Below, in pieces: positions 38,649 to 61,221 of a stretch of 64,000 nt of DNA. Within the stretch, counting starts at the first letter, position 1. Each line of letters opens with the position of its first letter. This DNA comes from Eubacteriales bacterium (GTDB lineage: Bacteria > Bacillota > Clostridia > Oscillospirales > UBA644): assembly GCA_045543655.1 (NCBI GenBank), contig JAZPXN010000085.1, forward strand, positions 422-64,421. The letters are read 5' to 3'. Under the pieces are notes generated by a model that searched no databases, was not told where the DNA came from, and worked only from the letters and a program-made list of their open reading frames with translations. The position numbers were made by a program, and so were the translations under genes.

Positions 38649-38664
38649 AAGAAGAGAAGTATGG

Positions 38665-40089: not shown

Positions 40090-40107
40090 AATTTATTTTC
40101 CCCGGGA

Positions 40108-42439: not shown

Positions 42440-42549
42440 TACGGGACCCTCCTCTTTTTTGGTTTGCGTTTTTTTATGTGACGGTGGAAATCCGGTCGGG
42501 GTTTTTCTTTCTGTCTCGTCTCGGTCGGTTTTTCGCCGTTGGATACGGG

Positions 42550-44605: not shown

Positions 44606-44808
44606 CACAAAATGTATCGTGCGCCTTTGTGAAATTGTACAAAACTCGACGGGAGTTCTTATGAAAAATTACCATACGACGTAACCCGCGTTTGAAAATT
44701 TGAATAAAAACCGACAAAAGCGGAACGATTTTGTAAGGTTTATTGCAATTTGCATCCGTATGTGGTATTATAATATTATCTCTAAATTTATCAACACGCG
44801 AGGAATTT

Positions 44809-45972
44809 ATGAAATACGAACTGATCGCCCCTGCCGCCTTCGGGCTGGAGGCGGTGACTGCCCGGGAATTGCAGAATCTGGGCTTTGAGGATACCCGTAC
44901 CGAAGACGGGCGGGTCTTTTTCTCCGGGGACGAATCCGCCGTGGCCAAGGCAAACCTGTGGTTGCGCACCGCCGCCCGGGTGCAGATCTGTCTGGCCCGG
45001 TTTCGGGCCGTCACCTTCGAAGAGCTGTTTCAAGGGGTAAAGGCGCTTCCCTGGGGGGAGATCCTGCCGGAAAACGCCCGCTTCCCCGTGGACGGAAGGT
45101 CGGTCAAATCCACCCTGTTCAGCATTTCCGACTGTCAGGCCGTTTCGAAGAAGGCCATCGTGGAAAAACTGAAGGAAAAATATCACCGGGACTTTTTCGA
45201 GGAGACGGGGGATCTGTACCGCATCGAGGTGGCCCTTCTGAAGGATACGGTCACCGTCACCCTGGACACCACCGGCGCCGGGCTTCATAAACGGGGCTAC
45301 CGAAGGATTGCCGGAGAGGCTCCGTTAAAAGAGACCATGGCCGCCGCCCTGATCGATCTCACCTTCTGGAAGCCGGGGCGCATTCTGGTGGACCCCATGT
45401 GCGGCACCGGCACCATTCCCATTGAAGCCGCCCTGATTGCGGAAAACCGGGCTCCGGGGCTGACCCGTACCTTCACGGCGGAATCCTGGCCTGCCTTTGC
45501 CAAAGCCTTTGCCGCTGCCCGGGAGGAAGCGAAGGCGCTGATTTGTCCCGCCACCGAGATTACGATCCTCGGCCGGGATATCGACGCAAAGGCCGCCGAC
45601 GTTTCCCAGACCTGCGCCCGCCTTGCGGGGGTGGAGAAGGCCGTCCGGTTCGAGCGGGCGGATATGCGGAAATTTACCTCCGACGAAAAATACGGCTTTA
45701 TCCTTACCAATCCGCCCTACGGCGAGCGGCTGGGGCAGGAGGAAGAGGTGCAGGCCATTTACCGGGATATGGGCAAGGTGTTCCGCTCTCTGGATACCTG
45801 GTCTTATTACGTGCTTACCGCCCATCCGGAGTTCGAGCGTCTCTTCGGCCGGAAGGCGGATAAACGCCGAAAGCTGTTCAACGGCCGGCTCCCCTGCCAG
45901 TATTATCAGTATCTCGGTCCGAAGCCTCCCCGTCCTCCGAGAGGGGAAGAAGGACCCGATTCGGCAAAATGA
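44809..45972 (+). CDS. THUMP-domain 23S rRNA m2G methyltransferase (RlmL/YpsC-like)
   Basis: Motifs FGLE, ANLWLR, LHKRGYR, APLKETMAA, DPMCGTGT and NPPYGERL. Confidence 0.92.
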   Translation: MKYELIAPAAFGLEAVTARELQNLGFEDTRTEDGRVFFSGDESAVAKANLWLRTAARVQICLARFRAVTFEELFQGVKALPWGEILPENARFPVDGRSVKSTLFSISDCQAVSKKAIVEKLKEKYHRDFFEETGDLYRIEVALLKDTVTVTLDTTGAGLHKRGYRRIAGEAPLKETMAAALIDLTFWKPGRILVDPMCGTGTIPIEAALIAENRAPGLTRTFTAESWPAFAKAFAAAREEAKALICPATEITILGRDIDAKAADVSQTCARLAGVEKAVRFERADMRKFTSDEKYGFILTNPPYGERLGQEEEVQAIYRDMGKVFRSLDTWSYYVLTAHPEFERLFGRKADKRRKLFNGRLPCQYYQYLGPKPPRPPRGEEGPDSAK

Positions 45973-45994: not shown

Positions 45995-47155
45995 ATGTTG
46001 AAAAAAATTCTTGCCCTGCTCTTTTGCACCGCACTGCTCTGTTCCTTTGCGGCCTGCGGGGAAACGCCCGTTGCCACCGATTCCGATCTTCCTTCCTCGG
46101 GCAGCACCGCCGGGAATACGGATTCCGCCGTTTCCGGGTCTTCGGATCAGGTCGATGCTTCGGATGAGCCCGTGAAGTACGAAAGCTACGATCCCGAGCT
46201 GGAGCATAAGGTAATGTTTTCGAGAACCGGCGGCGTTTTGTGGGTTCTGGATCTGGACAAGGCCGGCGATGTTTCCGCTCTTTCCAGTCTGGACGACGCC
46301 GTGGTCTGGGAATGGGATCCTGCGGAATGCCCGAACATCAAATATCCTGAGCGGGCCGGCTCTGCCGGGCTGAAATTCCGTCATTCCTCCTATTGGGACA
46401 CCGACGTGATCCTGCTGGCTCAGTCCAACGGCTGGGTGGGCGTCGTGGATTACGAAACGAAGGAAATGCTTTTTGAGCAGCAGCTCAAGGCCGGTCCCCA
46501 TTGTATCGAGCTGATGCCCAACGGCGATCTGGTGGTTGCTTCCTCCGGCAACGGAGACGAGAGCATTGCCGGGCTCTATTATTTCCCCCTCTCCACCGGC
46601 ACGGAGGAAAAGTCCGATTTCTCCCTCTTCAAGGGTGCCCACGGGGTCTGCTACGATCCCGAAAACGAGTGTCTCTGGGCTCTGGGGGACGACGAGGTCC
46701 GTTGCTACGTCGTGCAGAATTACGGCAAAGCCGACGCCAAGCTGAAGTGGATTCAGGGGGAAGGAGATTCGTTGGTGGAGCTGAACGATATCGGCGGCCA
46801 TAACCTGACGCCGGTCTACGGTCAGCCCGGCAAATACTGGGTCACCTCCATCAAGGGGATGTATCTCTTCGATTCTTCTACCGGCAAGCTTTCCAAAACG
46901 TACAAGGACCGCAAAGATCTTTCGTATCCCAACATCAAGGGCATCGCTTATTTTGCCGACGGCACCGCCGTGCAGTCCGGCTACGTGGGCGAGGGCGGGA
47001 ATCCGGATTATTGCTCCACCGCCCTGCGGATCATTACGCTGGAGGAGATCGGCGGCAAGGTAACCTCCGTCCGCCCCGTTACCCGGGAGATTCCCTTTGA
47101 GATAACCGGGGATCAAACCTATAAGGTTCAGGCCTTCAACAAAGATTATCAATAA
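45995..47155 (+). CDS. Beta-propeller-like lipoprotein, array member 1 (DUF6528-like)
   Basis: Lipobox FAAC, an Asp/Ser linker, motifs PHCIELMPNG, HGVCYDP and GHNLTP, ending YKVQAFNKDYQ. Start moved to MLKK after AGGAG. Confidence 0.85.
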   Translation: MLKKILALLFCTALLCSFAACGETPVATDSDLPSSGSTAGNTDSAVSGSSDQVDASDEPVKYESYDPELEHKVMFSRTGGVLWVLDLDKAGDVSALSSLDDAVVWEWDPAECPNIKYPERAGSAGLKFRHSSYWDTDVILLAQSNGWVGVVDYETKEMLFEQQLKAGPHCIELMPNGDLVVASSGNGDESIAGLYYFPLSTGTEEKSDFSLFKGAHGVCYDPENECLWALGDDEVRCYVVQNYGKADAKLKWIQGEGDSLVELNDIGGHNLTPVYGQPGKYWVTSIKGMYLFDSSTGKLSKTYKDRKDLSYPNIKGIAYFADGTAVQSGYVGEGGNPDYCSTALRIITLEEIGGKVTSVRPVTREIPFEITGDQTYKVQAFNKDYQ

Positions 47156-47176
47156 TTTCACCGGGAGGTTTCTCAT

Positions 47177-48301
47177 ATGAAACGGATCCTTGTTCTTCTT
47201 CTCTGCGGTCTTCTGCTCTGCGGCCTTGTTGCCTGCGGCGAAGCGCCCGTCGTTCCCGATTCCGACCTCCCTTCCACCGGAGCCTCCTCCGATGCCGGCA
47301 CTTCGGATTCGGAAAAGCCCGGTGCGGTGCTCTTTGACCCTGACGTTGAGCATAAGTTTCTCGCCTGCGACGTTCTGAACCACAGCATCGTGGTTTACGA
47401 TATGAACGCCTGCGACGAGGTCTACGATAATCTGAAAAACGACCGTTGTATCGTCTGGGAATGGGATGCCGACGACGACGCCACCTGCAAGGGAAAGCCC
47501 ACCTCCGGACTGGACGCCGCCAAGATCCGCTATTCCGATTATTACGAATGCGACGTGGTCATCGTCTGCTCCTCCGAGGGCTGGGCGGGGATTGTGGACT
47601 ACGAGACGAAGACCACCCTGTGGGAGACCGAAATTCCCGGCAGTAATCTCCACTCCGTGGAAATGATGCCCAACGGCGATCTGGTGCTGGTGGGGTCGGG
47701 AGAAGAGGGGAAGGTCTATTACGTCCCCCTGTCCGCCAACGTGACCGAATATACCGCCACCATCGACGCGCCCTCCGGTCACGGCGCCTGCTACGATCCC
47801 GTCAACGATTGGCTGTGGATTCTGGATTACGACGAGATCTTTGCCTGCAAGGTGGAGAATTACGGTGAGAAGGACGTTGCCCTTACCCGGGTCAACGGGA
47901 AATCCTATAATTTCACCACCCGCAACAAGGAGGCCAGCGGTCACGTGCTGACTCCCGTGGCCGGTCAGCCCGGAAAATACTGGATGGCCGCCGAACGCCT
48001 CTGGATTTTCGATAGCAACGAAATGACCCTGACCCGGAGCTACGATTACGCCGGGGTTTACAGCGCAAAAGAATCCGATTGGATGAAGGGCGTGGCTCAT
48101 TTTGAAGACGGCACCATGGTCCAGACCGTTCCCAAGTGGGGCGGCAAGACTCTGACCGACGCCACCTGCGGCGGATTCCGGGTTATCGTCCGGGAGGACG
48201 ACGGCAGCGGAAAGGCGGACGTGAACGTCTACAAGATCGTCTTCCAGCCCCGCAACCGGGAATTTTATAAAGTTACCGCCTTCTCCAAAAATTATCAGTA
48301 A
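47177..48301 (+). CDS. Beta-propeller-like lipoprotein, array member 2
   Basis: Lipobox LVAC, motifs LHSVEMMPNG, HGACYDP and GHVLTP, ending FYKVTAFSKNYQ. Confidence 0.85.
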   Translation: MKRILVLLLCGLLLCGLVACGEAPVVPDSDLPSTGASSDAGTSDSEKPGAVLFDPDVEHKFLACDVLNHSIVVYDMNACDEVYDNLKNDRCIVWEWDADDDATCKGKPTSGLDAAKIRYSDYYECDVVIVCSSEGWAGIVDYETKTTLWETEIPGSNLHSVEMMPNGDLVLVGSGEEGKVYYVPLSANVTEYTATIDAPSGHGACYDPVNDWLWILDYDEIFACKVENYGEKDVALTRVNGKSYNFTTRNKEASGHVLTPVAGQPGKYWMAAERLWIFDSNEMTLTRSYDYAGVYSAKESDWMKGVAHFEDGTMVQTVPKWGGKTLTDATCGGFRVIVREDDGSGKADVNVYKIVFQPRNREFYKVTAFSKNYQ

Positions 48302-48319
48302 TTCCGGGAGGTACGAACG

Positions 48320-49480
48320 ATGAAAAAGCTTTTCGCCTTTCTCCTGTGCGGCGTTATTCTCTGTGGCCTTGCGGCCTGCGGTGAGACGCCCGTCCCCGCC
48401 GATTCCGATTCCTCCGCCTCTTCCGGGGCGGTCTCCGATTCCGCGACCGGGGATTCCGTCGCCTCTTCCGATGAGGCCGACGTCTCCGACACTTCCGATG
48501 AGGAAGAAGTCAAAATTCCGGTTTTCGATCCCGCCGTGGATCATAAGATCATCATGGACGTCTCTGCCCGGGGCATCCTCGTGGTGGATCTGGACGAAAC
48601 CGGGGATCATCCCGAAAATTGGAGCGTGGAAGACGGAATTATTTGGGAATGGAGCACCGACGATCTGACGGAAGGCAAAATGAAGGGCGTTTCGGTCACC
48701 ATGGACTCGGCCCGTCTCAGGTATTCCCCCTATTACGAAAGCGACGTGATCGTATTCTGCGGCTCCGGCGGCTGGGTCGGCGTTGTGGATTACGCCACGA
48801 AGGAGCTGCTTTTTGAGGACAATCCCGGCAAGGGCCCCCATTCTGCGGAGCTGCTGCCCAACGGGGATCTGGTTCTCGCCTGCTCCGGGAATTCCAACAG
48901 CGAGGAGGGGTGCGTTCTTTATTATCCCCTTTCCTCCGGTCTGACGAGAAGCACCTCCACCTACCCCCTCATCTCCGCCCACGGGGTCTGCTACGATCCC
49001 GAGCAGGACGTGATCTGGGCGCTGGGCGGCTATGAGATCGTTGCTCTGAGCGTTTCCGGCAAGGGGACCGAGAAAGCAAAGATCTCTCCCGTCAGCGGCA
49101 TGGGCGTGAAGCTGCCCTCCAATGGCGGACACGAGTTGTCCCCCGCCTACGGACATCCGGGGAAATACTGGGTCTCCGGCGGTAAGGAGGTTTGGGTCTT
49201 CGATTCCGTGAACGGAAGTATCTCCGCCACCGATCTCCAGGCCAAGAAATATACCAACAAGAACGTCAAGGGAATGGCCTATTTTTCCGACGGTACCATG
49301 GTTCAGACCTCTCACGATCAGGGCGGCACCGGCACCTACCGCTCGTCTCTCTTCCGGGTCATGTATCTGGCGGAATCCTCCGGCAAGATCAAGACCTCCG
49401 TGGTCAAGGAGCTGATGATCCCCCACGCCGGCGATTATCAGTCCTATAAGGTCGACGTTTTCTGTAAAGATTATCAGTAA
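48320..49480 (+). CDS. Beta-propeller-like lipoprotein, array member 3
   Basis: Lipobox LAAC, motifs PHSAELLPNG, HGVCYDP and GHELSP, ending YKVDVFCKDYQ. Confidence 0.85.
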   Translation: MKKLFAFLLCGVILCGLAACGETPVPADSDSSASSGAVSDSATGDSVASSDEADVSDTSDEEEVKIPVFDPAVDHKIIMDVSARGILVVDLDETGDHPENWSVEDGIIWEWSTDDLTEGKMKGVSVTMDSARLRYSPYYESDVIVFCGSGGWVGVVDYATKELLFEDNPGKGPHSAELLPNGDLVLACSGNSNSEEGCVLYYPLSSGLTRSTSTYPLISAHGVCYDPEQDVIWALGGYEIVALSVSGKGTEKAKISPVSGMGVKLPSNGGHELSPAYGHPGKYWVSGGKEVWVFDSVNGSISATDLQAKKYTNKNVKGMAYFSDGTMVQTSHDQGGTGTYRSSLFRVMYLAESSGKIKTSVVKELMIPHAGDYQSYKVDVFCKDYQ

Positions 49481-49498
49481 GAAACGGAGTCTTCCGCG

Positions 49499-50641
49499 AT
49501 GAAACGAATTCTTTCCCTTCTTTTGTGCTGCCTTCTGGCCTTTGGGCTTGCGGCCTGCGGCGGGCAGACCGGGCCGGTGGTCTCCGATTACGGAAGCGCT
49601 TCTTCCGCCCCTTCCTCGGTCTCCGATACGGACGACGCTTCTGATGCTTCCGGCAAGACCGATTCTAACGCCGTCTCCGACGCGGTGGTTTTCGACCCCG
49701 GAATCGAGCATCAGATCCTGGTCTGTGATATCATGAACCATTCCGTCGTCCAGCTGGATCTGAACGTCTGCAACGGCGATTACAAGCTTCTTCGGGAGGA
49801 ATCCGCCGTGGTCTGGGAATGGGATGCGGACGAGGACCCCAATTGCCACCTGAAGCCCGGCTCCGGCATCGACGACGCCAAGATCCGGTATTCTCCCTAT
49901 TACGAAAAAGACGTTGTCATCGCTACCTCCTCCGGCGGCAAGGCCTACGTCGTCGATTATGAAAACAAGACCGTTCTCTGGGAAACCTCTCAATCCAACG
50001 GCCCCCACTCCATTGAAATGATGCCCAACGGGGACGTGGTCGTGGCCGGCTCCGGCGGGAGCAATTGGGAAACTGCAGGGAGCCTGGTTTACTACCCCCT
50101 GTCCACCGGCGCCGTGGGGAGAGGGCACGAATACTCCGTTCCTTCCTGTCACGGCGTGCAATGGGACCCCGTGCAGGAGGTGCTGTGGGTTCTGGGGTAT
50201 TACGGCGTGGAGGCGCTGGTCGTCAAGGACGGCAGGCTGTCTCCGGTTTCCGGCCTTTCCGTGGAATTTGACGGAGACGTCGGAGGACACGACCTTGCCC
50301 CCGTTTACGGGCAGCCCGGAAAATATTGGGTCACCGCTCATAAATATCTGTGGCTCTTCGATTCCGTGGAAATGACGCTTGTGAACCGATACGAATATTC
50401 CAACCGTCTCTCCGAAAAGAATCTGAAGGGCGTCGCCTCCTTTGCCGACGGCACTATGGTGCAGTGCGTGGCCAACGTTGGCTCCGATCTGCACGCTACC
50501 TGGTCTACCAAGGCCCTGCGGATTCTGTGGCCGCAAAGGACCGACGGAAAGGTCTCAAAGGTGAAAATGGAGGATTCGACCATTATGTTCTCCGACCGGG
50601 AATTCTATAAGGTCCATACCTTCTGTAAAGATTATCAATAA
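49499..50641 (+). CDS. Beta-propeller-like lipoprotein, array member 4
   Basis: Lipobox LAAC, motifs PHSIEMMPNG, HGVQWDP and GHDLAP, ending FYKVHTFCKDYQ. Confidence 0.85.
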   Translation: MKRILSLLLCCLLAFGLAACGGQTGPVVSDYGSASSAPSSVSDTDDASDASGKTDSNAVSDAVVFDPGIEHQILVCDIMNHSVVQLDLNVCNGDYKLLREESAVVWEWDADEDPNCHLKPGSGIDDAKIRYSPYYEKDVVIATSSGGKAYVVDYENKTVLWETSQSNGPHSIEMMPNGDVVVAGSGGSNWETAGSLVYYPLSTGAVGRGHEYSVPSCHGVQWDPVQEVLWVLGYYGVEALVVKDGRLSPVSGLSVEFDGDVGGHDLAPVYGQPGKYWVTAHKYLWLFDSVEMTLVNRYEYSNRLSEKNLKGVASFADGTMVQCVANVGSDLHATWSTKALRILWPQRTDGKVSKVKMEDSTIMFSDREFYKVHTFCKDYQ

Positions 50642-50680
50642 AACCGTTGCGATACGCTTCGATAAAAGGAGATTTTACTT

Positions 50681-51835
50681 ATGTTGAAAAAGATTCTTTC
50701 CCTTCTGTTATGCTCCCTGATGCTTCTGTCCCTTGCGGCCTGCGGCCCCACGGAAGATCCCTCCGGCACGAATACGGCCGGCTCCGACGCTCCTTCCGGG
50801 ACCGAGGGAGGAAACGACGCTTCCTCCGACGACAAAAAAGAAGGGGATCTGGTGGTTTACGATCCTGACATCGACCATCTGTTTTTGGCCACCGATATCT
50901 GCAACCACAGCATCGTGCTGTACGATCTGGACCGTTGTGAAGACGTTTACGAGAATCTTCTGACCGACAAGTGCGTGGTCTGGGAATGGGACGCCGACGA
51001 AGACCCCAACTGCAAGGGCAACGTGGGCGCCGGCATCGACGCTGCCAAATACCGCTATTCTCCCTATTATGAGAAAGACGTCATTATTGCCTGCTCCTCC
51101 TCCGGCTGGGCAGGGGTCATCGACTATGAAGAAAAGACCGTTCTGTGGGAATATGCCATCGGTTCCGGCCCTCACTCCATTGAGATGATGCCCAACGGCG
51201 ACGTGGTCGTAGCCTGCTCCGGCGGGGAATTCGAGGGCAAGCTGTCCTACGTTCCTCTGTCTGCCGGCGCGACCAAGCCCTCTCACGAAATTTTCTGCCC
51301 CTCCGGTCACGGCGTATCCTACGATCCCGTCAACGAATGTCTGTGGGTCCTGGAATTTGAACAGGTCTTCGCCGTCAACGTGCAGGGCTACGGCACCGCC
51401 AAGGCCAAGCTGGTTCGCCTCAACGGCACCGGATACGATTTCGGCGCGTCCAAGGAAGATACCTCCGGTCACGTTCTGTCCCCCAAATACGGGGAGCCCG
51501 GAAAATATTGGGTTGCCGGCGGGAAGCTGTGGATTTTCGATACTGCCACCGAAAAACTGTCGAAGGCCTATCCCCACAGCAGCGCCTATAACCACAAATC
51601 CGCCAACTGGATGAAGGGCGTTGCCTATTTTGAAGACGGCACCATGATCCAGACCGTGCCGGGGTCCGGCGGTGACACCACTTACGACTGGTCCTGCGGC
51701 GGCTTCCGTATTACGGTTCTGGAGGAATCCACCGGCAAGGTGAAAAAGGCCGTAGCCAAGACCCACGAGATCTATTTTGAAAGAACCGACCGTGAATTTT
51801 ACAAGGTCCATCCCTTCAACAAGAACTATCAGTGA
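50681..51835 (+). CDS. Beta-propeller-like lipoprotein, array member 5
   Basis: Lipobox LAAC, motifs PHSIEMMPNG, HGVSYDP and GHVLSP, ending FYKVHPFNKNYQ. Confidence 0.85.
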   Translation: MLKKILSLLLCSLMLLSLAACGPTEDPSGTNTAGSDAPSGTEGGNDASSDDKKEGDLVVYDPDIDHLFLATDICNHSIVLYDLDRCEDVYENLLTDKCVVWEWDADEDPNCKGNVGAGIDAAKYRYSPYYEKDVIIACSSSGWAGVIDYEEKTVLWEYAIGSGPHSIEMMPNGDVVVACSGGEFEGKLSYVPLSAGATKPSHEIFCPSGHGVSYDPVNECLWVLEFEQVFAVNVQGYGTAKAKLVRLNGTGYDFGASKEDTSGHVLSPKYGEPGKYWVAGGKLWIFDTATEKLSKAYPHSSAYNHKSANWMKGVAYFEDGTMIQTVPGSGGDTTYDWSCGGFRITVLEESTGKVKKAVAKTHEIYFERTDREFYKVHPFNKNYQ

Positions 51836-51853
51836 TTCACGGAAAGGTAAGTC

Positions 51854-53275
51854 ATGAAAAAGCGTATTTTTGCGGGGTTTCTCGCTCTTTTGCTCCTTCT
51901 TTCCTTTGCCGCCTGCGGAGATCCCGCCGAACCTTCCGACGGTTCGGGGAGTGATTCGGTTTCCGGCGTTTTCACCGATGCGTCTGCAGATCCGTCCTCT
52001 GACGCCGTGACCGACGGGACCTCCGACGGGTCTTCCGTGGAAGCGTCCGATTCCGCTACCGATTCCGCTACCGATTCCGCTTCTTCCGCCTCCGGATCGG
52101 TCACCGATTCCGACGAAGCGACCGACGAGACCTACGAGTCCGACGACGAGACCGTCCCCGACGGCCCCACCTACGGGGATTACGACGACGCGCCTCCGGA
52201 GGGCGGTGAGGATACCGACGTGTATCTGCCCGGATTTGCTCCCTCCCTGACCCCCTCCACCTCCGACGGGACGGGCTCCGGGCTTCCTACCGAGGACGAG
52301 CAGGATCCCCCTGCGGCGAACGACACCGTCGTAGGCAATACCCTCTCCGGTCTTATGGCCATCACCGACCAGCGCAACGGACAGATTGCCGTGGTGGATC
52401 TGGCCAACCCGGATATCACCTCCGCTTCCGCTCTGAAATGGCTCTGGTCTCCCACCATGCACGGGGACGTGACCGTGAACAGCACGGGGAAGCATCTGGA
52501 CGACGTCGTGGTCCGGGAGGTTCACGCCGGGCTTTTTGACGGCACCGTGGTGGGCGTTTCCAATTCCGGCGGCTTTGTCGCCGTGGTGGAATATCCCTCC
52601 GGAAAATGCCTTTTTAACGTCAGCATTCCGGGTTACGGTCCTCACGATATCGAGATTCTCCCCAACGGACTCGTCGTTGTGGCCTGCTCCGGCAACGGGA
52701 ACGAGGACAGAGCCTGTCTGCGGGTTTATCGGGCAAGATCCAAGAACGATACCGTCTGCGCCTCGGTGTTCCTTTCCAGTGCCCACGGGGTATTGTGGGA
52801 TCCCGACCGGCAATGGGTCTGGGCCTTGGGGAACGTCAGTCTGAACGCCTATACCATCAGCGGAAGCCCCTCCACCACCCCCAAGATCTCTGCCGTCAAC
52901 GGCGTGGGTGCCGTTGGATTTTCCGGTGGACATTGCCTCTCTCCCGTCTACGGGAATCCCGACCGGCTTTGGATTTCTGCGGGATCGAAGGTCTACCAGG
53001 TGGATAAAGATACGGGAAAGCTTTATACCGATTACGTGGGGGCTGAGCGGATCAACACCTCCGCCATCAAGAGCGTCAACTCCTTTGCAAACGGTACCAC
53101 CGTCTGGACCCGTGCCGACAGCGCAAACGCCACCGCGACCCACAATACCGACGTGGTCAATATTCTTTATTACAACGTTTACGCCTCCGGGAAGAGGGTC
53201 AGGGCCTATATGAACGTTAAATTCTCCAATCGGGATTTTTACAAGGTGAGACCCTTCGTTACCGCCTATCAATAA
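51854..53275 (+). CDS. Beta-propeller-like lipoprotein, array member 6 (long acidic stalk)
   Basis: Lipobox FAAC, a ~140-aa Asp/Ser/Thr linker, motifs PHDIEILPNG, HGVLWDP and GHCLSP, ending FYKVRPFVTAYQ. Confidence 0.85.
   Translation: MKKRIFAGFLALLLLLSFAACGDPAEPSDGSGSDSVSGVFTDASADPSSDAVTDGTSDGSSVEASDSATDSATDSASSASGSVTDSDEATDETYESDDETVPDGPTYGDYDDAPPEGGEDTDVYLPGFAPSLTPSTSDGTGSGLPTEDEQDPPAANDTVVGNTLSGLMAITDQRNGQIAVVDLANPDITSASALKWLWSPTMHGDVTVNSTGKHLDDVVVREVHAGLFDGTVVGVSNSGGFVAVVEYPSGKCLFNVSIPGYGPHDIEILPNGLVVVACSGNGNEDRACLRVYRARSKNDTVCASVFLSSAHGVLWDPDRQWVWALGNVSLNAYTISGSPSTTPKISAVNGVGAVGFSGGHCLSPVYGNPDRLWISAGSKVYQVDKDTGKLYTDYVGAERINTSAIKSVNSFANGTTVWTRADSANATATHNTDVVNILYYNVYASGKRVRAYMNVKFSNRDFYKVRPFVTAYQ
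52047..52081 (+). repeat. 12-bp tandem repeat (about 3 copies) in the linker of member 6
   Basis: CCGATTCCGCTA twice plus CCGATTCCGCT, encoding DSATDSATDSA. Confidence 0.85.
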
Positions 53276-53288
53276 ACAGAAAGCGTGT

Positions 53289-54215
53289 ATGCCGATGAAA
53301 CCGAAATGGATTGCTCTGACCGATCAGCGCAACGACGAGATCGTCGTCCTGGATCTCTCCTCCAAGGATTTTGCGGATCCGGTCTGGCGCTGGTCTCCCA
53401 CGGGACGGGGGGATCTTTCCTATCCGGGCGAGAAGAACCGCCGTCTTGATTCCTTTACCCTGCGCAAGGTGAACGCCGGCCTTTTTCACGGCCCCGTGGC
53501 AGGAGTGACCAAATCCGGCGGCATGGTCGCCGTGGTGGAGTATCCCTCCGGGAAATGTCTGTTTAACGTAGACGCTTCCGGCTACGGCCCCCACGATATC
53601 GATATATTGCCCAACGGGTGCGTTGCGGTGGCCTGCTCCGGAAACGGAAACGCCGCCATGGCGGAGCTTCGGGTCTATCGGGCCGGAACCAAGGATGAGG
53701 ACGCCCGGGTCTCGGTTCCTCTCCCCGGCGTGCACGGGGTTCTGTGGGACCCCTCCCTGGAGATTCTCTGGTGCCTGAGTTATTCGGAATTGCGTGCCTA
53801 TCGCATTTCCCTTTCCTTTGAGGGAATGCCCATCTTATCCCGGGTCAAGGATCGGGGCGTGGGCGGCCTTCGCTCCGGCCACTGTCTGTCTCCGGTTTAC
53901 GGAGCCCCCGATCGGCTTTGGATTACCGACGCCGACGGCGTGTATCAGTATTCCAAGTCTATGGATACCTTCTGTGACGGGTATCCCGGAAAATCGAAGG
54001 TCTGTATCCCCAGCGTCAAGAGCATTAACAGCTATGCCGACGGGACTCTGGTCATGACCGTGGCTGACGGCAAGCGCAACGCTACCGCGCCTCACAACAC
54101 CGATACGGTGCGCATCCTCGTCCCCGATAAGACGGGGGAATACGTTTCCCGGGATCTGAAGTTCGAGAACCGTGATTTTTATAAGGTACGTATCTTCGAT
54201 CCGTCGTATCAATGA
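53289..54215 (+). CDS. Array member 7, propeller domain without signal peptide
   Basis: Starts directly at WIALTDQRN. Motifs PHDIDILPNG, HGVLWDP and GHCLSP, ending FYKVRIFDPSYQ. Confidence 0.82.
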   Translation: MPMKPKWIALTDQRNDEIVVLDLSSKDFADPVWRWSPTGRGDLSYPGEKNRRLDSFTLRKVNAGLFHGPVAGVTKSGGMVAVVEYPSGKCLFNVDASGYGPHDIDILPNGCVAVACSGNGNAAMAELRVYRAGTKDEDARVSVPLPGVHGVLWDPSLEILWCLSYSELRAYRISLSFEGMPILSRVKDRGVGGLRSGHCLSPVYGAPDRLWITDADGVYQYSKSMDTFCDGYPGKSKVCIPSVKSINSYADGTLVMTVADGKRNATAPHNTDTVRILVPDKTGEYVSRDLKFENRDFYKVRIFDPSYQ

Positions 54216-54270
54216 TCCTTCCGGGAATTCCGGAAAATGTGAAAAATATTCGAAATAATCCAAAATCCTC

Positions 54271-54299
54271 TTGCTTTTTTACTGCAGATGGTGTATAAT
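54271..54299 (+). promoter_or_regulatory. Sigma-A promoter of tRNA-Ser
   Basis: TTGCTT-17 bp-TATAAT. Confidence 0.7.
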
Positions 54300-54334
54300 A
54301 GTCCACGGTGACTTTCCGAAGCCGCCGTGAATAT

Positions 54335-54426
54335 GGAGAGATGGCTGAGCTGGTCTAAGGCGCACGACTGGAAATCGTGTAAGGGCTAATAACTCTTCGG
54401 GGGTTCGAATCCCCCTCTCTCCGCCA
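54335..54426 (+). tRNA. tRNA-Ser(GGA)
   Basis: Acceptor stem GGAGAGA/TCTCTCC, anticodon arm CACGA-CTGGAAA-TCGTG, a long variable arm, GGTTCGAATCC T-arm, discriminator G and encoded CCA. Confidence 0.97.
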
Positions 54427-54428
54427 TG

Positions 54429-54458
54429 AAGCACCTGCAGTTTTGCGGGTGCTTTTTG
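54429..54458 (+). terminator. Terminator after tRNA-Ser
   Basis: AAGCACCTGCA...TGCGGGTGCTT followed by TTT. Confidence 0.7.
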
Positions 54459-54493
54459 TTATACCGAAAATTGATTTTAAGGTGTTTTTTGCT

Positions 54494-55453
54494 ATGAAAA
54501 AAATTGCGCTTCTTTTGGCTCTGCTGTTCTCTCTGTCCCTTCTTGCCGGGTGTATGCCTATGCGTATGGAGCCGGCGCCGGTGGAGCCTCAGCGGATTCT
54601 GATTACCGATCAGCTTCACGAGGAGCTGCGGATCTACGATCTGCGCAACGAGGATCTTTCCGAGCCGGAATGGTCCTGGGGCTGCGACGAGGAAACCTTC
54701 CGCAGCGTGGACGGGGCGAAGTATCGCTTCGACCCCATTTCCGGGGTCAACGTCATTGCCTTCTGCTCCTCCGGAGGCTTTGCCGGCATCGTCACCTATC
54801 CCGTGGGAGAGCTGATTTCTTACGTTTCCTATGCGGGAAGCAATCCCCATTCGGTGGAAATTTTGCCCGACGGCGCGCTGGCGGTGGCATCGTCTACCGG
54901 GAACACGGTGCGCATTTATCCCCGGATTCCCTACGGCGACGCGGAGCTGACCGAATATACCCAGGTGGAGCTTTCCAGCGCTCACGGCGTTCTGTGGGAT
55001 CCTGCCGAGGAGGTTCTGTGGGCGTTGGGGATGAACGATCTGGTTGCTTACGAGGTGACGGAGGATCACGAAATGATCGAGCGGGACGATCTGTCCATTC
55101 ATCTGCCCTACGGCGGCGGACACGATCTTCAGCCGGTCTTCGGCACGGAGGATCTGTTCTGGGTTACCGGGAACAGCAACGTGATGCAGGTCAACAAGAC
55201 CACCGGCGAGGTTTCGATCCGTTATCCCGGCTGGGGGACGGTCAGCGCCCTTACGGCGGTGAAGGGGATCGGCAATTTTGACGACGGAACCCTGCTGATG
55301 GCCCAGCAGAACGGTACTTATAAAGAATGGAACACCAATACCGTTACTCTGGGCTATTACGATGCGAAGGATAACCTGTATCATCTGGAGCAGCGGGTGA
55401 TCCCCGACGTGGCCTTTTACAAAGTACGGGTGTTTGAGAAAAGTTACCGATAA
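54494..55453 (+). CDS. Beta-propeller-like lipoprotein, array member 8 (almost no linker)
   Basis: Lipobox LAGC, motifs PHSVEILPDG, HGVLWDP and GHDLQP, ending FYKVRVFEKSYR. Start at MKKIAL after TAAGGTG. Confidence 0.85.
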   Translation: MKKIALLLALLFSLSLLAGCMPMRMEPAPVEPQRILITDQLHEELRIYDLRNEDLSEPEWSWGCDEETFRSVDGAKYRFDPISGVNVIAFCSSGGFAGIVTYPVGELISYVSYAGSNPHSVEILPDGALAVASSTGNTVRIYPRIPYGDAELTEYTQVELSSAHGVLWDPAEEVLWALGMNDLVAYEVTEDHEMIERDDLSIHLPYGGGHDLQPVFGTEDLFWVTGNSNVMQVNKTTGEVSIRYPGWGTVSALTAVKGIGNFDDGTLLMAQQNGTYKEWNTNTVTLGYYDAKDNLYHLEQRVIPDVAFYKVRVFEKSYR

Positions 55454-55498
55454 TGCTTTCTCTTCACGATAAAAAACCAAAGAAAGAGGTACTACGTT

Positions 55499-56578
55499 AT
55501 GAAACGAATTCTGTCTCTTCTGCTTCTTCTCGTTATGGTTGCGGGGCTGGTAGCTTGCGGGGAAACGGCGGGGAACACCGATTCCTCCGGGACCGATTCC
55601 GCAGTCCCCGGCACCGGCTCTGTGGGCGGAAGCTCCTCCGACGCCGTAAATTCCGACGACGCCGAGGAAGAATGGAAGCCCGGCACCGAGCCCAATCTGG
55701 TCATGGCCTGCGATCAGTGGAACCACCGTATCGTGGTCTACGATATGGCGCTCCTCGATGAGAAGGGCAGCCTGGATAAGGCGGAGGTCCTGGAGATCCA
55801 CGATGCTCACACCGCCGGCCTGAAATATCGTGAAGACACGGTCTACGGGGACGTGATCATCTATTCCGATACCCATATCGTTTCTTATCCCGAAGGGGAA
55901 AAGATCTGGAGCGCTCCCGGAAAGGCCGGCTCCAATCCTCACTCTATTGAGATCCTTCCCAGCGGGAATATCGTTACCGCTTCCTCCACCGACGGGCAGG
56001 TTTCCATCTTCAACACCTACGCCAATCTGAAGGAGGGCGCGGCGCTGAAGGTTTCTTATTATTCGCTGCCCGGCGCTCACGGGGTTCTGTGGGATCCCGA
56101 AAACGAATTGGTCTGGGCCATCGGCGACTACGATCTGGTGGCCTATCAGGTACGGGAAAAGGACGGCGTGGAGATCCTTTCGAAGGTCAACGGCATCGGC
56201 GCCAAGCTGCCCACCACCGGCGGCCACGATCTCTCTGCAGATCTGACCGACACCAACTTCCTGTGGTGCACCACCAACAGCGGCGTTTATCATTTCGATA
56301 AGGAAGCCAACGAGTTTATCACCAAATTCAATCAGTACGCCAAGCTGAGCAAGAAGTCGGTCAAAGGCTTCGGCAATAACCGCAACGGCAATTTCTTCTT
56401 CTGCTTCCCCAACCACGGCCCCGGCCGGGAATGGGAAAAGGAAGGGATCGCCGATTGGTGTACCGACACCATTTATTACGCTTATTGGAAGAGCGAAAAT
56501 TTCCTGTACGTACAGCCCTGCGTATCGGAAAAGTCCGCCTTCTATAAGGTCCGCGTTCTCTGCGGTCAATATCAATAA
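55499..56578 (+). CDS. Beta-propeller-like lipoprotein, array member 9
   Basis: Lipobox LVAC, motifs PHSIEILPSG, HGVLWDP and GHDLSA, ending FYKVRVLCGQYQ. Confidence 0.85.
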   Translation: MKRILSLLLLLVMVAGLVACGETAGNTDSSGTDSAVPGTGSVGGSSSDAVNSDDAEEEWKPGTEPNLVMACDQWNHRIVVYDMALLDEKGSLDKAEVLEIHDAHTAGLKYREDTVYGDVIIYSDTHIVSYPEGEKIWSAPGKAGSNPHSIEILPSGNIVTASSTDGQVSIFNTYANLKEGAALKVSYYSLPGAHGVLWDPENELVWAIGDYDLVAYQVREKDGVEILSKVNGIGAKLPTTGGHDLSADLTDTNFLWCTTNSGVYHFDKEANEFITKFNQYAKLSKKSVKGFGNNRNGNFFFCFPNHGPGREWEKEGIADWCTDTIYYAYWKSENFLYVQPCVSEKSAFYKVRVLCGQYQ

Positions 56579-56599
56579 CTTTTTAAAGGAGAAACCGCT

Positions 56600-57691
56600 A
56601 TGAAAAAGCTGCTTGCGATTTTTTTGATCCTGACCCTTACCCTTGCCCTCGTAGCCTGCGGCGGAGACCCTGCCGAAAATCCCACCGATTCCGGATCTGC
56701 CGGTGACAGCGTCGTTTCCGACACCGACAAGACCCCCGCCTCCGACGATGAGGAAAGTGAAGATTCCGAAAAGGAATGGGAGCCTTTGGAGGTTGCCGCA
56801 AACAAATTCATCGTATCCGATTACCTCAACCGTCGTCTGGTGGTTTACGATCTGGATCTCGTTCCCGAAGAGGGCGATCTGTCTTTGGGCGAAATCTGGG
56901 CCCTTGAAGGGGTCTATTCCGCTTCGGTCAAATACCGGGAAAATACCAAATACGGTACCGTGGTTCTCACCACCCATAACGGTCCCGTCATCACCGATTT
57001 CGAGACCAAGGAAGAGATCTGGTGCGGCGGCGCCGGCAAGGCGGGCTCCAACCCCCACTCCATTGAAATTCTGCCCAGCGGCAATATCGTTACCGCCTCC
57101 TCCACCGACGGTCTGGTCCGTATTTTCAATACCTACGATATGGTGACGAACGGCGCTCCCATTAAGCATAAGAGCTACGAGCTGCCCAGCGCTCACGGCG
57201 TTCTGTGGGATCCGGAAAGCGAATTGCTTTGGGCTCTTGGGGAAACGGAGCTGATTGCGTACGTGGTGAAGGAGCAGGACGGCATGGAGGTTCTCCAGAA
57301 GGTCAACGGCATCGGTGCCAAGCTGCCTACCTACGGCGGTCACGATCTTTCCGCCGATCTGATGGACTCCAATTTCCTGTGGTGCACCACCAACAAAGGC
57401 GTCTATCATTTTGATAAGGAAGCCAACGAATTCGACGAAAAATACAATCAGTACGCCAAACTGAACAAGGGTGCCGTCAAGGGCTTCGGCAACAACAAGA
57501 ACGGCAATTTCATCTTCTCTCAGGCCAAGGGTGACGACGACGAGACCCTGCCCACCGGCGCTCCCGGCTGGAGCACCGACGTGATCACCTTCGGCTTCTG
57601 GAAGAGCGAAAACTTCCTGTACCTCCGGGAAATTCAGTGCAAAGACTGCGCCTTCTACAAGGCCCGTGTGCTCCACGGTGATTATCAATAA
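56600..57691 (+). CDS. Beta-propeller-like lipoprotein, array member 10
   Basis: Lipobox LVAC, motifs PHSIEILPSG, HGVLWDP and GHDLSA, ending FYKARVLHGDYQ. Confidence 0.85.
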   Translation: MKKLLAIFLILTLTLALVACGGDPAENPTDSGSAGDSVVSDTDKTPASDDEESEDSEKEWEPLEVAANKFIVSDYLNRRLVVYDLDLVPEEGDLSLGEIWALEGVYSASVKYRENTKYGTVVLTTHNGPVITDFETKEEIWCGGAGKAGSNPHSIEILPSGNIVTASSTDGLVRIFNTYDMVTNGAPIKHKSYELPSAHGVLWDPESELLWALGETELIAYVVKEQDGMEVLQKVNGIGAKLPTYGGHDLSADLMDSNFLWCTTNKGVYHFDKEANEFDEKYNQYAKLNKGAVKGFGNNKNGNFIFSQAKGDDDETLPTGAPGWSTDVITFGFWKSENFLYLREIQCKDCAFYKARVLHGDYQ

Positions 57692-57708
57692 TTCTCTGTG
57701 AGGACCTT

Positions 57709-58794
57709 ATGATGAAACGAATCGTATCGCTTCTTCTTCTTTCCACCCTTATTCTTGGAGCTCTGGTCGGATGCGTTCCTCAGAGCACTCCCGTTTCCGA
57801 TTCCTCCGCCGGAAACCAATCCGCCGTCTCCGATTCCGCCTCCGTCGATTCCTCCGATTCCGCCGACAAGCCGGAGAAGCGCTCCGCTCAGGAGATTCTG
57901 GAGGCCTCCGAGCATCTGGTGGGGCTTTGCGATCAGGGAAACAGCCGCATTATCGTCAGCGATCTTGCGGTGGAGGATTGGGAAAACGACAACGCCGTGG
58001 TCTGGGAATACAAGGACGATTCCTGCCGGTCCGTGGCCGGCATCAAGCTGCGCTGGAGCGAGGTTTTCCAGGAGCTGGTGGTAGCCTATTGCTGGCACGG
58101 CGGGGCGGCTATCGTTTCCTATGAAGACAAAAAAGAGTTGTACAGCACCAACCTCACCGGTGTCAATCCCCACTCGGTGGAGATTTTGCCCGACGGTCAT
58201 CTGATTGTGGCCTCGTCCACCGACAACGACGTGCGGCTTTACGATGCGGAGGATCAGAAAAACGGCAAGGGACGCCATTGCCAGAAGATTGACTTTCCCA
58301 ACGCTCACGGGGTTCTGTGGGATCCGGAATACGAGGTGGTCTGGCTGTGGGGAACCGATCAGCTGTCCGCCTATTCCGTGGTGGAAAAGGACGGCAAGCC
58401 CTGGCTTGCGCCTATGGGCGGCATGACCTACAAGGCTCCGAAATCCGGCGCTCACGATCTCTGCCCCGTATACGGAAATAAGGATCAGATGTTCATTACC
58501 TGCGGCAACGGTATTATGATCTTCGATAAATCCACCGAGGAATTTTCCTTCGCCTACCCCGGCGGCTCGGTGGGACGGAAGCATTCCTACGCCCCCGGTA
58601 CCGGCAATTTTGAGCAGGACGGCGTGTTCTTCTTCACCTCCATCAAGGACGATACCATGGTTCTGAACGATTGGTGCACCAATATCGTTTTCGTTTACGT
58701 GCCGAACGCCGACGGCGTGGGGAAGCTGCTCCGCCGCAAGGCTCCCAACGACGCCTATTATAAGGTCCGCACCTGGTCTCCCGATTATCAATAA
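57709..58794 (+). CDS. Beta-propeller-like lipoprotein, array member 11
   Basis: Lipobox LVGC, motifs PHSVEILPDG, HGVLWDP and AHDLCP, ending YYKVRTWSPDYQ. Confidence 0.85.
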   Translation: MMKRIVSLLLLSTLILGALVGCVPQSTPVSDSSAGNQSAVSDSASVDSSDSADKPEKRSAQEILEASEHLVGLCDQGNSRIIVSDLAVEDWENDNAVVWEYKDDSCRSVAGIKLRWSEVFQELVVAYCWHGGAAIVSYEDKKELYSTNLTGVNPHSVEILPDGHLIVASSTDNDVRLYDAEDQKNGKGRHCQKIDFPNAHGVLWDPEYEVVWLWGTDQLSAYSVVEKDGKPWLAPMGGMTYKAPKSGAHDLCPVYGNKDQMFITCGNGIMIFDKSTEEFSFAYPGGSVGRKHSYAPGTGNFEQDGVFFFTSIKDDTMVLNDWCTNIVFVYVPNADGVGKLLRRKAPNDAYYKVRTWSPDYQ

Positions 58795-58802
58795 CTGAAA
58801 AC

Positions 58803-58879
58803 GATCTCCGGATCCGGGTTCTTTGCCGATCCGGAGATTCTTTTTCGTACTTGACAAGTCGTCCGGGATATGGTATACT
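58803..58879 (+). promoter_or_regulatory. Terminator followed by an internal promoter within the array
   Basis: Hairpin ATCTCCGGATC...GATCCGGAGAT with a T run, then TTGACA-17 bp-TATACT (58851-58879) with an extended -10 TG. Confidence 0.72.
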
Positions 58880-58915
58880 GACCCTATGAAACCAATTGTT
58901 ACGGAGGATTACCTC

Positions 58916-60028
58916 ATGCGGCGAATTTTCTCTGTCTTGCTTCTTTTTGCGTTGATTTTCGGGCTTTTTTCCGGCTGTGAGTCCGACAATCCCCCTTCTT
59001 CCGACGTCCCGGGGGCGCAGACCGGATCGGTTTCCGATTCTGCGGAAGCGTCTTCCGATGAGGTGTCCGACGGTACGGAAGGAGGCGACGCTTCCGATTC
59101 CAAGCCGGAGAAGCGCTCCGCTCAGGAGATTCTGGAGGCCTCCGAGCATCTGGTCGGGCTTTGCGACCAGGGCAACCGTCGCATTATCGTCAGCGATCTT
59201 GCGGTGGAGGATTGGGAGAACGACAACGCCGTGGTCTGGGAGTACAAGGACGATTCCTGCCGGTCCGTGGCCGGCATCAAGCTGCGCTGGAGCGAGGTTT
59301 TCCAGGAGCTGGTGGTGGCTTATTGCTGGGGCGGCGGGGCGGCCGTCGTTTCTTACGAGGATAGGGTGGAGCTGTACCGTACCACCCGCACCGGAGAGAA
59401 TCCCCATTCCGTGGAGATTTTGCCCGACGGTCATCTGATCGTGGCGTCGTCCACCGACAACGACGTGCGCCTTTACGATGCCGAAGCGCTGGCCTCCGGT
59501 GACCAAAAGCATTGTCAGAGGCTGGAATTCCCCAACGCCCACGGGGTTTTGTGGGATCCGGAATACGAGGTGGTCTGGCTTTGGGGAACCGATCAGCTGG
59601 GAGCCTATTCCCTGATTGAAAAGGACGGAAAGCCCTGGCTTGCGCCTATGAGCGGAATGCGCTATACCGCGCCCAAGAGCGCCGCTCACGATCTTTGCCC
59701 CGTCTACGGAAACAAGGATCAGCTCTTTATTACCTGCGCCAAAGGGATCATGATCTTCGATAAGCAGACCGAAAAATTTTCCTTTTCTTATCCCGGCGGG
59801 TCGGTAGGGCAGAAGCATCCCTACGCCCCCGGTACCGGCAATTTTGAGCAGGACGGCGTGTTCTTCTTCACCTCCATCACCAAGGAGACCATGGTGGTCA
59901 ACGATTACAGCACCAATATCGTTTTCGTATACGTGCCGAAGGCCGACGGGGTGGGGAAGCTGCTCCGCCGCAAGGCCTCCAACGACGTTTATTATAAAGT
60001 CCGCACCTGGTCCCCGGATTATCAGTAA
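58916..60028 (+). CDS. Beta-propeller-like lipoprotein, array member 12
   Basis: Start MRRIFS after GGAGG, lipobox FSGC, domain nearly identical to member 11, ending YYKVRTWSPDYQ. Confidence 0.85.
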   Translation: MRRIFSVLLLFALIFGLFSGCESDNPPSSDVPGAQTGSVSDSAEASSDEVSDGTEGGDASDSKPEKRSAQEILEASEHLVGLCDQGNRRIIVSDLAVEDWENDNAVVWEYKDDSCRSVAGIKLRWSEVFQELVVAYCWGGGAAVVSYEDRVELYRTTRTGENPHSVEILPDGHLIVASSTDNDVRLYDAEALASGDQKHCQRLEFPNAHGVLWDPEYEVVWLWGTDQLGAYSLIEKDGKPWLAPMSGMRYTAPKSAAHDLCPVYGNKDQLFITCAKGIMIFDKQTEKFSFSYPGGSVGQKHPYAPGTGNFEQDGVFFFTSITKETMVVNDYSTNIVFVYVPKADGVGKLLRRKASNDVYYKVRTWSPDYQ

Positions 60029-60050
60029 CGCATTTTGAAAGGAGAATTCC

Positions 60051-61151
60051 GTGAAAAAGAATTTTGCTCTGTTGCTGGTGCTTCTTCTTTGCGCAGGACT
60101 TCTGACCGCTTGCGGTCCGGGAGCGGATCCGGAGAAAAATACGAATGGCGATCCCGACCCGGATCGGGCCTCGGATTCTATCTCCGTCACCGATTCCGAG
60201 GGGTCGAAGCATTCTTCGCTTTCCGTTTCCATGCCGCCGGCCTACACGAAGCCGTCCACCGATTCCTCGGCGCCGACCAAGCTGGAAAAGGGGAAATATC
60301 TGGTGGGACTCACCGACCAGAAGAACAGCCGCCTCATCGTCTGCGACCTTGCCGTGGAAAACTGGGCCAACGACCGGGCCGTCGTCTGGGAATACGGGGG
60401 AATCTCCGCCGGCGGCATCAAATTCCGGGAGAACGATTATTGGGGCGGGGAGGTGGTCTTGTATTGCGGCGGCAAAAACGCAGGGATTATTTCCTACGCC
60501 TCCAAAAAGCTGCTCCTTTCCGTGGAAACCGTTCCGGGGAATCCCCACTCGGTGGAGCTTTTGCCCAACGGCGTTTTCATCGTGGTGGGTTCTACCGGAA
60601 ACGAGACCTACGTATACGGCGCCGGCAAGACCGAGCCCTCCTTCACCTTGCCCCTTACCAAAGGCCACGGGGCGCTGTGGGACCCGAAATACGGGGTTTT
60701 GTGGCTGGAGGGGGATAATCTCCTGCAGGCTTACAAGGTCACGGGAACGGCGGAAAATCCCGCTCTGGAGAAGGTTAAGGGCATGACCTACCATCCCAAC
60801 ACCTCTCTGCACGATATGGCGCCGGTCTACGGCAATCCCGACGCCCTCCTCCTTACGGGGGCAAACGGCGTCGTGCTGTTTGACAAGACCACCGGACAGG
60901 CTTCCCATAATTATCCTGCCGGCGGCTATCTCAAGGCTCAGACCTACGTTCCCGGCGTGGGCAATTATCCCGGGGATTCGGTCTACGTTTTCACCACCAT
61001 CCGGGAGGATACCCTCACCTATAAGGAATGGGGAAGCGACCGCGTCGAGATCTTCGTTTCCTTTGGCGACGGCCGGGGCAAGGTGCTGACCCGGCAGGCG
61101 AAGGGGGATGCGTATTATAAAGCGCGGGCCTGGATCTCCGATTACCAATAA
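60051..61151 (+). CDS. Beta-propeller-like lipoprotein, array member 13
   Basis: GTG start after AAGGAG, lipobox LTAC, motifs PHSVELLPNG, HGALWDP and LHDMAP, ending YYKARAWISDYQ. Confidence 0.85.
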   Translation: MKKNFALLLVLLLCAGLLTACGPGADPEKNTNGDPDPDRASDSISVTDSEGSKHSSLSVSMPPAYTKPSTDSSAPTKLEKGKYLVGLTDQKNSRLIVCDLAVENWANDRAVVWEYGGISAGGIKFRENDYWGGEVVLYCGGKNAGIISYASKKLLLSVETVPGNPHSVELLPNGVFIVVGSTGNETYVYGAGKTEPSFTLPLTKGHGALWDPKYGVLWLEGDNLLQAYKVTGTAENPALEKVKGMTYHPNTSLHDMAPVYGNPDALLLTGANGVVLFDKTTGQASHNYPAGGYLKAQTYVPGVGNYPGDSVYVFTTIREDTLTYKEWGSDRVEIFVSFGDGRGKVLTRQAKGDAYYKARAWISDYQ

Positions 61152-61221
61152 ATGAATAAACCGGGGTTTTCTTCTGTATAATGCATATTTTCACCCCGCG
61201 TTTGTGAAATAAATGTTAAAC

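Follow-up and report, generated by a model that had tools for sequence, protein, structure and literature searches.

An invariant histidine ring in a tandem array of predicted DUF6528 propellers: a likely active site with possible arylsulfate sulfotransferase-like chemistry

Peptidyl-α-hydroxyglycine lyase (PAL), a six-bladed propeller of the NHL family, holds zinc with three histidines; in ExiPAL, whose residue numbers are used here, these are H95, H210 and H309, 115 and 99 residues apart (PMC10900485), and the spacing can be read as placing them on alternate blades. In SMP-30-type hydrolases, the metal ligands lie on blades 2, 4, 5 and 6 or on blades 2, 5 and 6 and always include one across the pore, as with Glu48/Asn134/Asn191/Asp242 of gluconolactonase (blades 2, 4, 5 and 6) and E21/N120/N175/D229 of DFPase (PMC8820113). 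Among the arylsulfate sulfotransferases (ASSTs), Dh_ASST_6 also has six blades and forms a covalent sulfo-His350 in a center of His220, His283 and His350 (63 and 67 residues apart), and no active-site metal is described for it in the available part of the preprint (bioRxiv 10.64898/2026.10.08.757636); three conserved histidines in ASSTs are also reported in bioRxiv 10.64898/2026.10.08.757629. We compared these enzymes with DUF6528 (Pfam PF20138), a family already catalogued without known function, thirteen genes of which lie in tandem in a 64,000-nucleotide stretch of contig JAZPXN010000085.1 from a Eubacteriales bacterium (GCA_045543655.1; this whole stretch is called the window).

The His/His/His/Lys/Tyr-Lys ring of these proteins is likely an active site, which would make them enzymes. 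All thirteen copies contain (P/L)H(S/C/D)x(E/D), HG(V/A)x(W/Y)DP and (G/A/L)Hx(L/M), with His1 and His2 40–48 amino acids (aa) apart and His2 and His3 46–54 aa apart (first His codon at 46499, last at 60810), together with a near-terminal YK; a final YQ is kept in 12 of the 13, and YR ends copy 8. This pattern, which the initial annotation had picked out, exceeds what chance or recent duplication would leave, since identity to copy 1 is 27–44% and 16 columns are invariant among the array copies. The three His and YK are likewise retained in all 28 paralogues of the genome, and an alignment of 150 sequences, the 77 representatives of which share 29% identity on average, shows no exception to the three His.

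More widely, 397 domains from fetched proteins yielded 371 that span the ring and, from these, 111 representatives below 50% identity. The three His were kept in 109 of the 111 and the exact series H, H, H, K, Y, K in 98, and the next-best His columns reached 0.31 (at a ragged end) and 0.11. The invariance extends over Bacillota, Bacteroidota, Actinomycetota and Lentisphaerota; numbered as in the structural model of copy 8, K50, H93, H184-D185, Y283-K284 and R286 are shared by all of 11 cross-phylum sequences and H138 by 10 of the 11, and a Bacteroides member scoring 1e-201 bears the same His/His/His/Lys/Tyr-Lys ring. Arg replaces His2 in one single-domain member (L031). Both exceptions among the 111 representatives are one half of a two-propeller protein (P0081, 650 aa; P0090, 551 aa), in which an intact ring is paired with a degenerate domain that has lost all three His together and still scores as DUF6528. 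Lys284, Lys50, Glu96, Asp143 and Pro99 are conserved as strongly as the His, and at position 284 the degenerate domains, too, have Lys or Arg.

DUF6528 was matched by 12 of the 13 copies at 25.4–57.8 bits, above the gathering cut-off of 23.5 bits; copy 2 scores 17.4 bits, yet clusters with copy 5 in the tree. All 30 of 30 ESM Atlas matches were DUF6528. No NCBIfam model matched copy 8, NHL repeats scored weakly (1 of the 13 copies above the Pfam cut-off), and no paper naming DUF6528 or PF20138 was found in the literature searched.

The AlphaFold2 model of copy 8, built from the 150-sequence alignment, has a predicted local distance difference test score of 96.8, a predicted TM-score of 0.94 and, by its strand list, six blades. 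His93, His138, His184, Lys231 and Tyr283 each open the first (inner) strand of a blade: the three His on the consecutive blades 3–5, Lys at the start of blade 6, and YK on the C-terminal strand 282–287, which completes blade 1. The model thus bears out the earlier proposals of a propeller fold, of histidines at equivalent blade positions and of a closing YK strand. The first strands of a propeller line its pore and, because each of the five ring residues begins such a strand, they would surround one mouth of the pore. Among the loops of this face, 1D-2A and 6B-6C are the most variable in length. By fold, the model matched YWTD propellers (Z 22–24), 3no2 (20.8), NHL propellers (about 20), PAL (19.3), SMP-30 types (about 18) and the ASST Cpz4 (17.9). 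Foldseek found no specific relative, fold searches set no enzyme family apart from other six-bladed propellers, and PDB sequence searches with three-His profiles returned only generic WD40 and sensor propellers; the fold by itself assigns no function.

The initial annotation had likened the histidines to the metal site of PAL, and this comparison did not hold. PAL (3FVZ), like DUF6528, has six blades, three conserved His and, close to the pore, one Tyr and one basic residue, and it aligns with the model over 229 residues (root-mean-square deviation (rmsd) 3.0). However, the match ends at model residue 269, short of the closing strand. In ExiPAL, the catalytic Y178 and R225 lie to either side of His2 in the chain; the invariant Tyr of DUF6528 stands on the closing strand. 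Because the DUF6528 His occupy consecutive blades at 40–54 residues, against 99–115 residues in PAL, the ring is not a PAL site; Lys and Tyr-Lys, which are not metal ligands, stand across it. The SMP-30/gluconolactonase/PON1/DFPase group (PF08450) shares the fold and the arrangement of blade-start residues around the pore, but uses Glu/Asn/Asn/Asp for Ca, Mg, Zn or Fe where DUF6528 has Tyr/x/His/His/His/Lys.

Could the DUF6528 ring work like that of an ASST? We aligned 16 ASST domains (PF05935/PF14269) taken from genomes and anchored them on E. coli AssT (3ELQ), on which His252, His356-x-Asn358, Arg374, His436 and Tyr559-Arg560 were confirmed. Both families have six blades, with three His spread over consecutive ones, a His opening blades 3 and 5, and His-Asp at the place of the sulfo-carrier, and in both a C-terminal strand with Tyr-[Arg/Lys] closes the ring; on the other hand, DUF6528 has His in place of the blade-4 Asn, an additional blade-6 Lys and shorter blades. 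When the blade starts (YK / x[GDE] / HS / HG / HD / KG in DUF6528 and YR / xD / H[DE] / NS / HD / GS in ASST), which were picked by hand after the idea had arisen and set against one control family, were compared, the in-register order ranked 11th of 720 permutations and was the best of six rotations (26.8 vs 12.6), whereas the SMP-30 control ranked 344th of 720, no better than random. Cpz4 (9kf6) aligned with the model over 251 residues (rmsd 3.6), from 74 to 423 of its chain, and this span of 349 equals the in-register start-to-end distance in its sequence. A metal-free His-ring enzyme of the ASST kind fits the pattern better than PAL does. No array copy matched PF05935 or PF14269 at E 0.1. 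By membership, DUF6528 is not an ASST; its mechanism may nevertheless be ASST-like, with His138 and Lys231 as substitutes.

The genomic context makes a glycan-related function likely for the family. Twelve distinct Bacteroidota loci were read, with L013/L100, L014/L115 and L015/L106 each counted once and with a weak G721 match and further unfetched Bacteroides matches lying outside the twelve. SusC/SusD accompany DUF6528 in 7 of them, and in 6 the next gene encodes a sulfatase (L015, L107, L109, L113), a metallophosphoesterase (L013) or a phosphodiester glycosidase (L112). Five of these genomes hold 7–81 sulfatases each, and 4 of their 7 DUF6528 loci adjoin one, compared with an estimated chance of roughly 0.5–6% per gene, a contrast that overstates the effect because sulfatases cluster in glycan loci and the kin are not independent. 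DUF6528 loci also include rhamnosidases of the glycoside hydrolase (GH) families GH78 and GH106 and, in three (L011, L022, L109), xylose-isomerase-like TIM barrels. Of 37 homologues scanned, for the most part long proteins, a metallophosphoesterase domain is present in 8 (in 7 of these above cut-off), and others are fused to GH20-domain-2-like, dockerin, SLH or carbohydrate-binding modules. In total, the sulfo/phospho links fall in five lineages. In the genome that contains the array, an adjacent same-strand glycoside hydrolase (GH2, GH20, GH30, GH31 or GH116) was found at 5 of the 9 other loci, a count with no baseline. Together with the loss of the ring in degenerate domains and its retention in leaderless copies, this glycan-degradation context favors the earlier suggestion of enzymes over passive adhesins.

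We tentatively propose, by analogy with ASST, that the ring works by metal-free histidine chemistry on anionic (phosphate or sulfate) esters of glycans, which it would cleave or transfer. The blade-5 His of the His-Asp pair would attack S or P and bear the transferred group in covalent linkage; acid/base catalysis and anion binding would fall to the His of blades 3 and 4, and lysines would replace the ASST arginine. Tandem duplication would preserve this chemistry while the pocket loops drift, producing a surface panel of enzymes for chemically varied glycans, with occasional copies acting in the cytoplasm. Phosphoesters would be likelier targets than sulfate in this genome because it has 24 metallophosphoesterase and 3 phosphodiester-glycosidase (NAGPA) matches against a single full-length sulfatase among 2 matches; in related genomes that lack DUF6528, the median number of metallophosphoesterases is 6.5. 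In its fullest form, the proposal would make DUF6528 an unrecognised group of metal-free His-ring enzymes (phospho/sulfo-transferases or esterases), remotely derived from the ASST scaffold, that remove or shift phosphate and sulfate on gut glycans (teichoic acids, capsules, mucin), and one Clostridia genus would have multiplied them to as many as 28 on its surface; taken as a whole, this is doubtful.

Several further points weigh against an ASST-like mechanism on phosphate or sulfate esters. The second catalytic His of ASST, two residues before the blade-4 Asn, occurs in just 5 of the 111 representatives, and no Arg equivalent to Arg374 of blade 4 is among the three commonest residues in columns +9 to +17 past His2 of the same set. 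The blade-6 Lys is Pro in copies 11–13. Profile comparison by hhalign gave 73–80% for ASST against 84–91% for SMP-30 lactonases, a similarity that is only generic, and a second ASST alignment gave 6%; a single Vgb-like sequence reached about 1%. Apart from DUF6528 itself, ESM Atlas offered leads at 0.81–0.82 only, one of which, at 0.81, pointed to a cluster in which PF05935 accounts for 12%. Non-enzymatic YWTD and NHL propellers head the list of fold matches. As to context, the 8 phosphoesterase fusions form a single clade, a weakly placed sister of copy 8, and therefore represent one event; no sulfatase- or phosphoesterase-type neighbours were present at the Streptomyces, Lentisphaeraceae and Oscillospiraceae loci read; and the array in the window is flanked by housekeeping genes. 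A metallophosphoesterase is near only 2 of the 10 DUF6528 loci in this genome (0.66 expected, p 0.14). In the 12 genomes of the genus, DUF6528 copy number correlates with metallophosphoesterases (rho 0.89), but also with GH20 (0.92) and genome size (0.83), which points to a broad expansion of foraging functions more than to one for phosphate. Neither this correlation, which the GH20 control matches, nor the proximity to metallophosphoesterases within this genome, which is not significant, is counted as support.

Of the other explanations, a metalloenzyme survives best, although we regard it as rather unlikely. Here a single Zn, Mn or Fe ion would be held by the three His at the mouth of the pore, and an anionic substrate, bound and activated by Tyr/Lys, would undergo hydrolysis or elimination. 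The invariance of three His at equivalent positions agrees with this, as does the PAL fold match. Carotenoid oxygenases bind Fe with His of consecutive blades and a fourth across the ring. Residues of consecutive blades also share one metal in the six-bladed hydrolases gluconolactonase and DFPase (PMC8820113); however, the sites described there include a cross-pore ligand on blade 2, where DUF6528 has a variable D/A/S and, on the far side, Lys and Tyr-Lys. Furthermore, the PAL His are about 100 residues apart (PMC10900485), and the ASSTs show a three-His center that works through a covalent intermediate instead.

Less probable still is a metal-free glycan lyase, in which a His base, a Tyr acid and Lys/His charge neutralisers would perform β-elimination on uronic-acid or oxidised sugars, as in the polysaccharide lyase (PL) families PL24, PL25 and PL42. 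These use His/Tyr/Arg in a propeller pocket, and the catalytic site of PL42 is metal-free, but they are seven-bladed (PMC8377490), whereas the DUF6528 model has six blades. Moreover, no sequence match was found between DUF6528 and the three families, and a lyase, which suits the loci with rhamnosidases and xylose-isomerase-like barrels, leaves the phosphoesterase neighbours and fusions unexplained.

Non-catalytic surface binding, in which an anionic sugar or phosphate would be held in the His/Lys ring and many copies would broaden capture or adhesion, is improbable. Surface glycan-binding proteins are usual after susD, and the Bacteroidota gene often stands there; 12 of the 13 array proteins are lipoproteins, on flexible linkers, with up to 28 copies per genome, and the top fold matches are binding propellers. 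Against this, five identical polar residues across phyla would be unexpected if the ligands differed, the ring is kept in leaderless, presumably cytoplasmic copies, and the two-domain proteins combine an intact with a degenerate ring. That the His and YK are purely structural is scarcely credible: some of the equally conserved residues (Lys284, Lys50, Glu96, Asp143, Pro99) are probably structural, but the degenerate domains of P0081 and P0090 remain recognisable as DUF6528 after losing all three His, and L031 has Arg for His2.

The thirteen genes are co-oriented open reading frames of 308–473 aa on the + strand that tile positions 45995–61151, with intergenic gaps mostly of 13–45 bp (Table 1). 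By lipobox signal, 12 are lipoproteins, 11 of which have an Asp/Glu/Ser/Thr-rich linker of about 40–150 aa; copy 7 lacks a signal peptide, as an in-frame stop lies immediately upstream of its start. The array is split after copy 7 by the tRNA-Ser gene and a terminator-like hairpin (54335–54455), and a hairpin and a strong promoter-like site precede copy 12 (58785–58879); therefore, the array may comprise several transcription units. No RNA holder is listed for 52000–61200. Elsewhere in the window lie a 957-aa BspA-type leucine-rich-repeat protein and a minus-strand glycogen gene cluster upstream of the array (23869–26742 and 34192–44487).

Table 1. Genes, signals and ring residues of the DUF6528 array (window positions unless a contig or locus is named; residues numbered as in the structural model of copy 8; dN/dS, ratio of nonsynonymous to synonymous substitution rates)
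Feature	Position	Strand	Remarks
RlmL-like THUMP methyltransferase	44743..45972	+	upstream flank of array
DUF6528 lipoprotein 1	45995..47155	+	386 aa; His codons 46499, 46640, 46799
DUF6528 lipoprotein 2	47177..48301	+	374 aa; 17.4 bits, under Pfam cut-off; sister of copy 5
DUF6528 lipoprotein 3	48320..49480	+	386 aa
DUF6528 lipoprotein 4	49499..50641	+	380 aa
DUF6528 lipoprotein 5	50681..51835	+	384 aa
DUF6528 lipoprotein 6	51854..53275	+	473 aa; Asp/Glu/Ser/Thr-rich linker of ~150 aa
DUF6528 copy 7, leaderless	53289..54215	+	308 aa; ring intact; sister of copy 6
tRNA-Ser(GGA)	54335..54426	+	within array, between copies 7 and 8
Terminator-like hairpin	54428-54455		after tRNA-Ser(GGA)
DUF6528 lipoprotein 8	54494..55453	+	319 aa; linker nearly absent; modelled from 54572 onward
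His93	54848..54850	+	blade 3, inner-strand start; ASST His252 position
His138	54983..54985	+	blade 4; ASST Asn358 position
His184-Asp185	55121..55126	+	blade 5; position of ASST sulfo-carrier His436
Lys231	55262..55264	+	blade 6; Pro in copies 11-13
Tyr283-Lys284	55418..55423	+	closing C-terminal strand of blade 1; ASST Tyr559-Arg560 position
DUF6528 lipoprotein 9	55499..56578	+	359 aa
DUF6528 lipoprotein 10	56600..57691	+	363 aa; sister of copy 9
DUF6528 lipoprotein 11	57709..58794	+	361 aa
Sigma70-type promoter-like site	58851..58879	+	upstream of copy 12; 11/12 matches, TG; consensus match only
DUF6528 lipoprotein 12	58916..60028	+	370 aa; propeller 85% identical to copy 11, dN/dS 0.21
DUF6528 lipoprotein 13	60051..61151	+	366 aa; GTG start
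Leaderless copies	window 53289-54215; G000:C84:86425-87354; G000:C90:12841-13779; L043:10276-11184		each beside its lipoprotein sister

The genome (G000) has 28 DUF6528 copies in total, across 10 loci. DUF6528 is present in all 11 same-genus genomes (2–24 matches); each of 12 genomes in the genus shows the expansion, at 2–27 Pfam DUF6528 matches. Of 13 further genomes from the same taxonomic family, one has it, and it is absent from 16 other families of the order. Outside the genus, few genomes have DUF6528, mostly as one copy (none of 300 Bacteroidota, 6 of 400 Bacteroidales, 9 of 100 Bacteroides and 1 of 250 Actinomycetia genomes, the Bacteroidales and Bacteroides counts each including one weak stop-containing match and the center genomes being excluded).

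An RlmL-like gene precedes the array also in G002 (12 copies), G005 (7) and G007 (6). A quick tree of 71 of 74 DUF6528 domains, from which three fragments were dropped, shows about six sub-lineages in mostly the same array order in G000, G002, G005 and G010, with recent local duplications besides; the six G007 copies all stem from one sub-lineage. In five sister pairs, dN/dS is 0.21–0.56. Leaderless copies have arisen separately on at least four branches, always with a lipoprotein copy as sister and mostly with the longer branch of the two, and they keep the three His and YK; the three database proteins nearest copy 7 are likewise leaderless, as are 12 of 187 examined. This suggests repeated re-routing of one activity to the cytoplasm.

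Other loci deserve description. L013 (434–13891) and L100 have the order sigma/FecR-SusC-SusD-DUF6528-metallophosphoesterase, and facing this set, convergently, are genes for a glycerol-1-phosphate dehydrogenase-like protein, a HAD phosphatase, a GlpT-like transporter and a glycerophosphodiesterase; the locus is a candidate for the breakdown of sn-glycerol-1-phosphate polymers, for example lipoteichoic acid. The commonest Bacteroides locus (L014:2992–14814 and L115) reads SusC-SusD-fasciclin-two unknown genes-DUF6528-weak GH99-like gene-GH31-GH2; two of its genes had no PDB match, one of them having a weak GH99-like Pfam match. In L110 (1538–6647), DUF6528 adjoins an imuB/dnaE2-like mutagenesis cassette and glycan context is absent. 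Within the genome itself, L041 (G000:C84:78000–94500) places four DUF6528 genes amid purine-synthesis genes (AICAR transformylase, IMP cyclohydrolase, GARS, FGAM synthase), and in L039 (4460–5971, G000:C32) a 504-aa neighbour of a DUF6528 copy has no Pfam match and matches the family profile, possibly only through a shared signal and linker. Many of the 24 calcineurin-like phosphoesterase matches are very long frames (up to 2500 aa; for example, window 335–2737), and tandem groups of them lie on C55, C56 and C61.

Since DUF6528 occurs in glycan-uptake loci of gut Bacteroides, its activity would be a missing step of a pathway. If DUF6528 turns out to be a common type of Zn hydrolase, it is of moderate interest. 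If, on the other hand, the ASST-like reading is true, a second family would share the rare propeller chemistry of a covalent His carrier, perhaps with phosphate as well; this would be relevant for enzymologists and glycan engineers. The expansion to 28 copies and the repeated loss of the export signal amount to a heavy investment of this genus in the activity.

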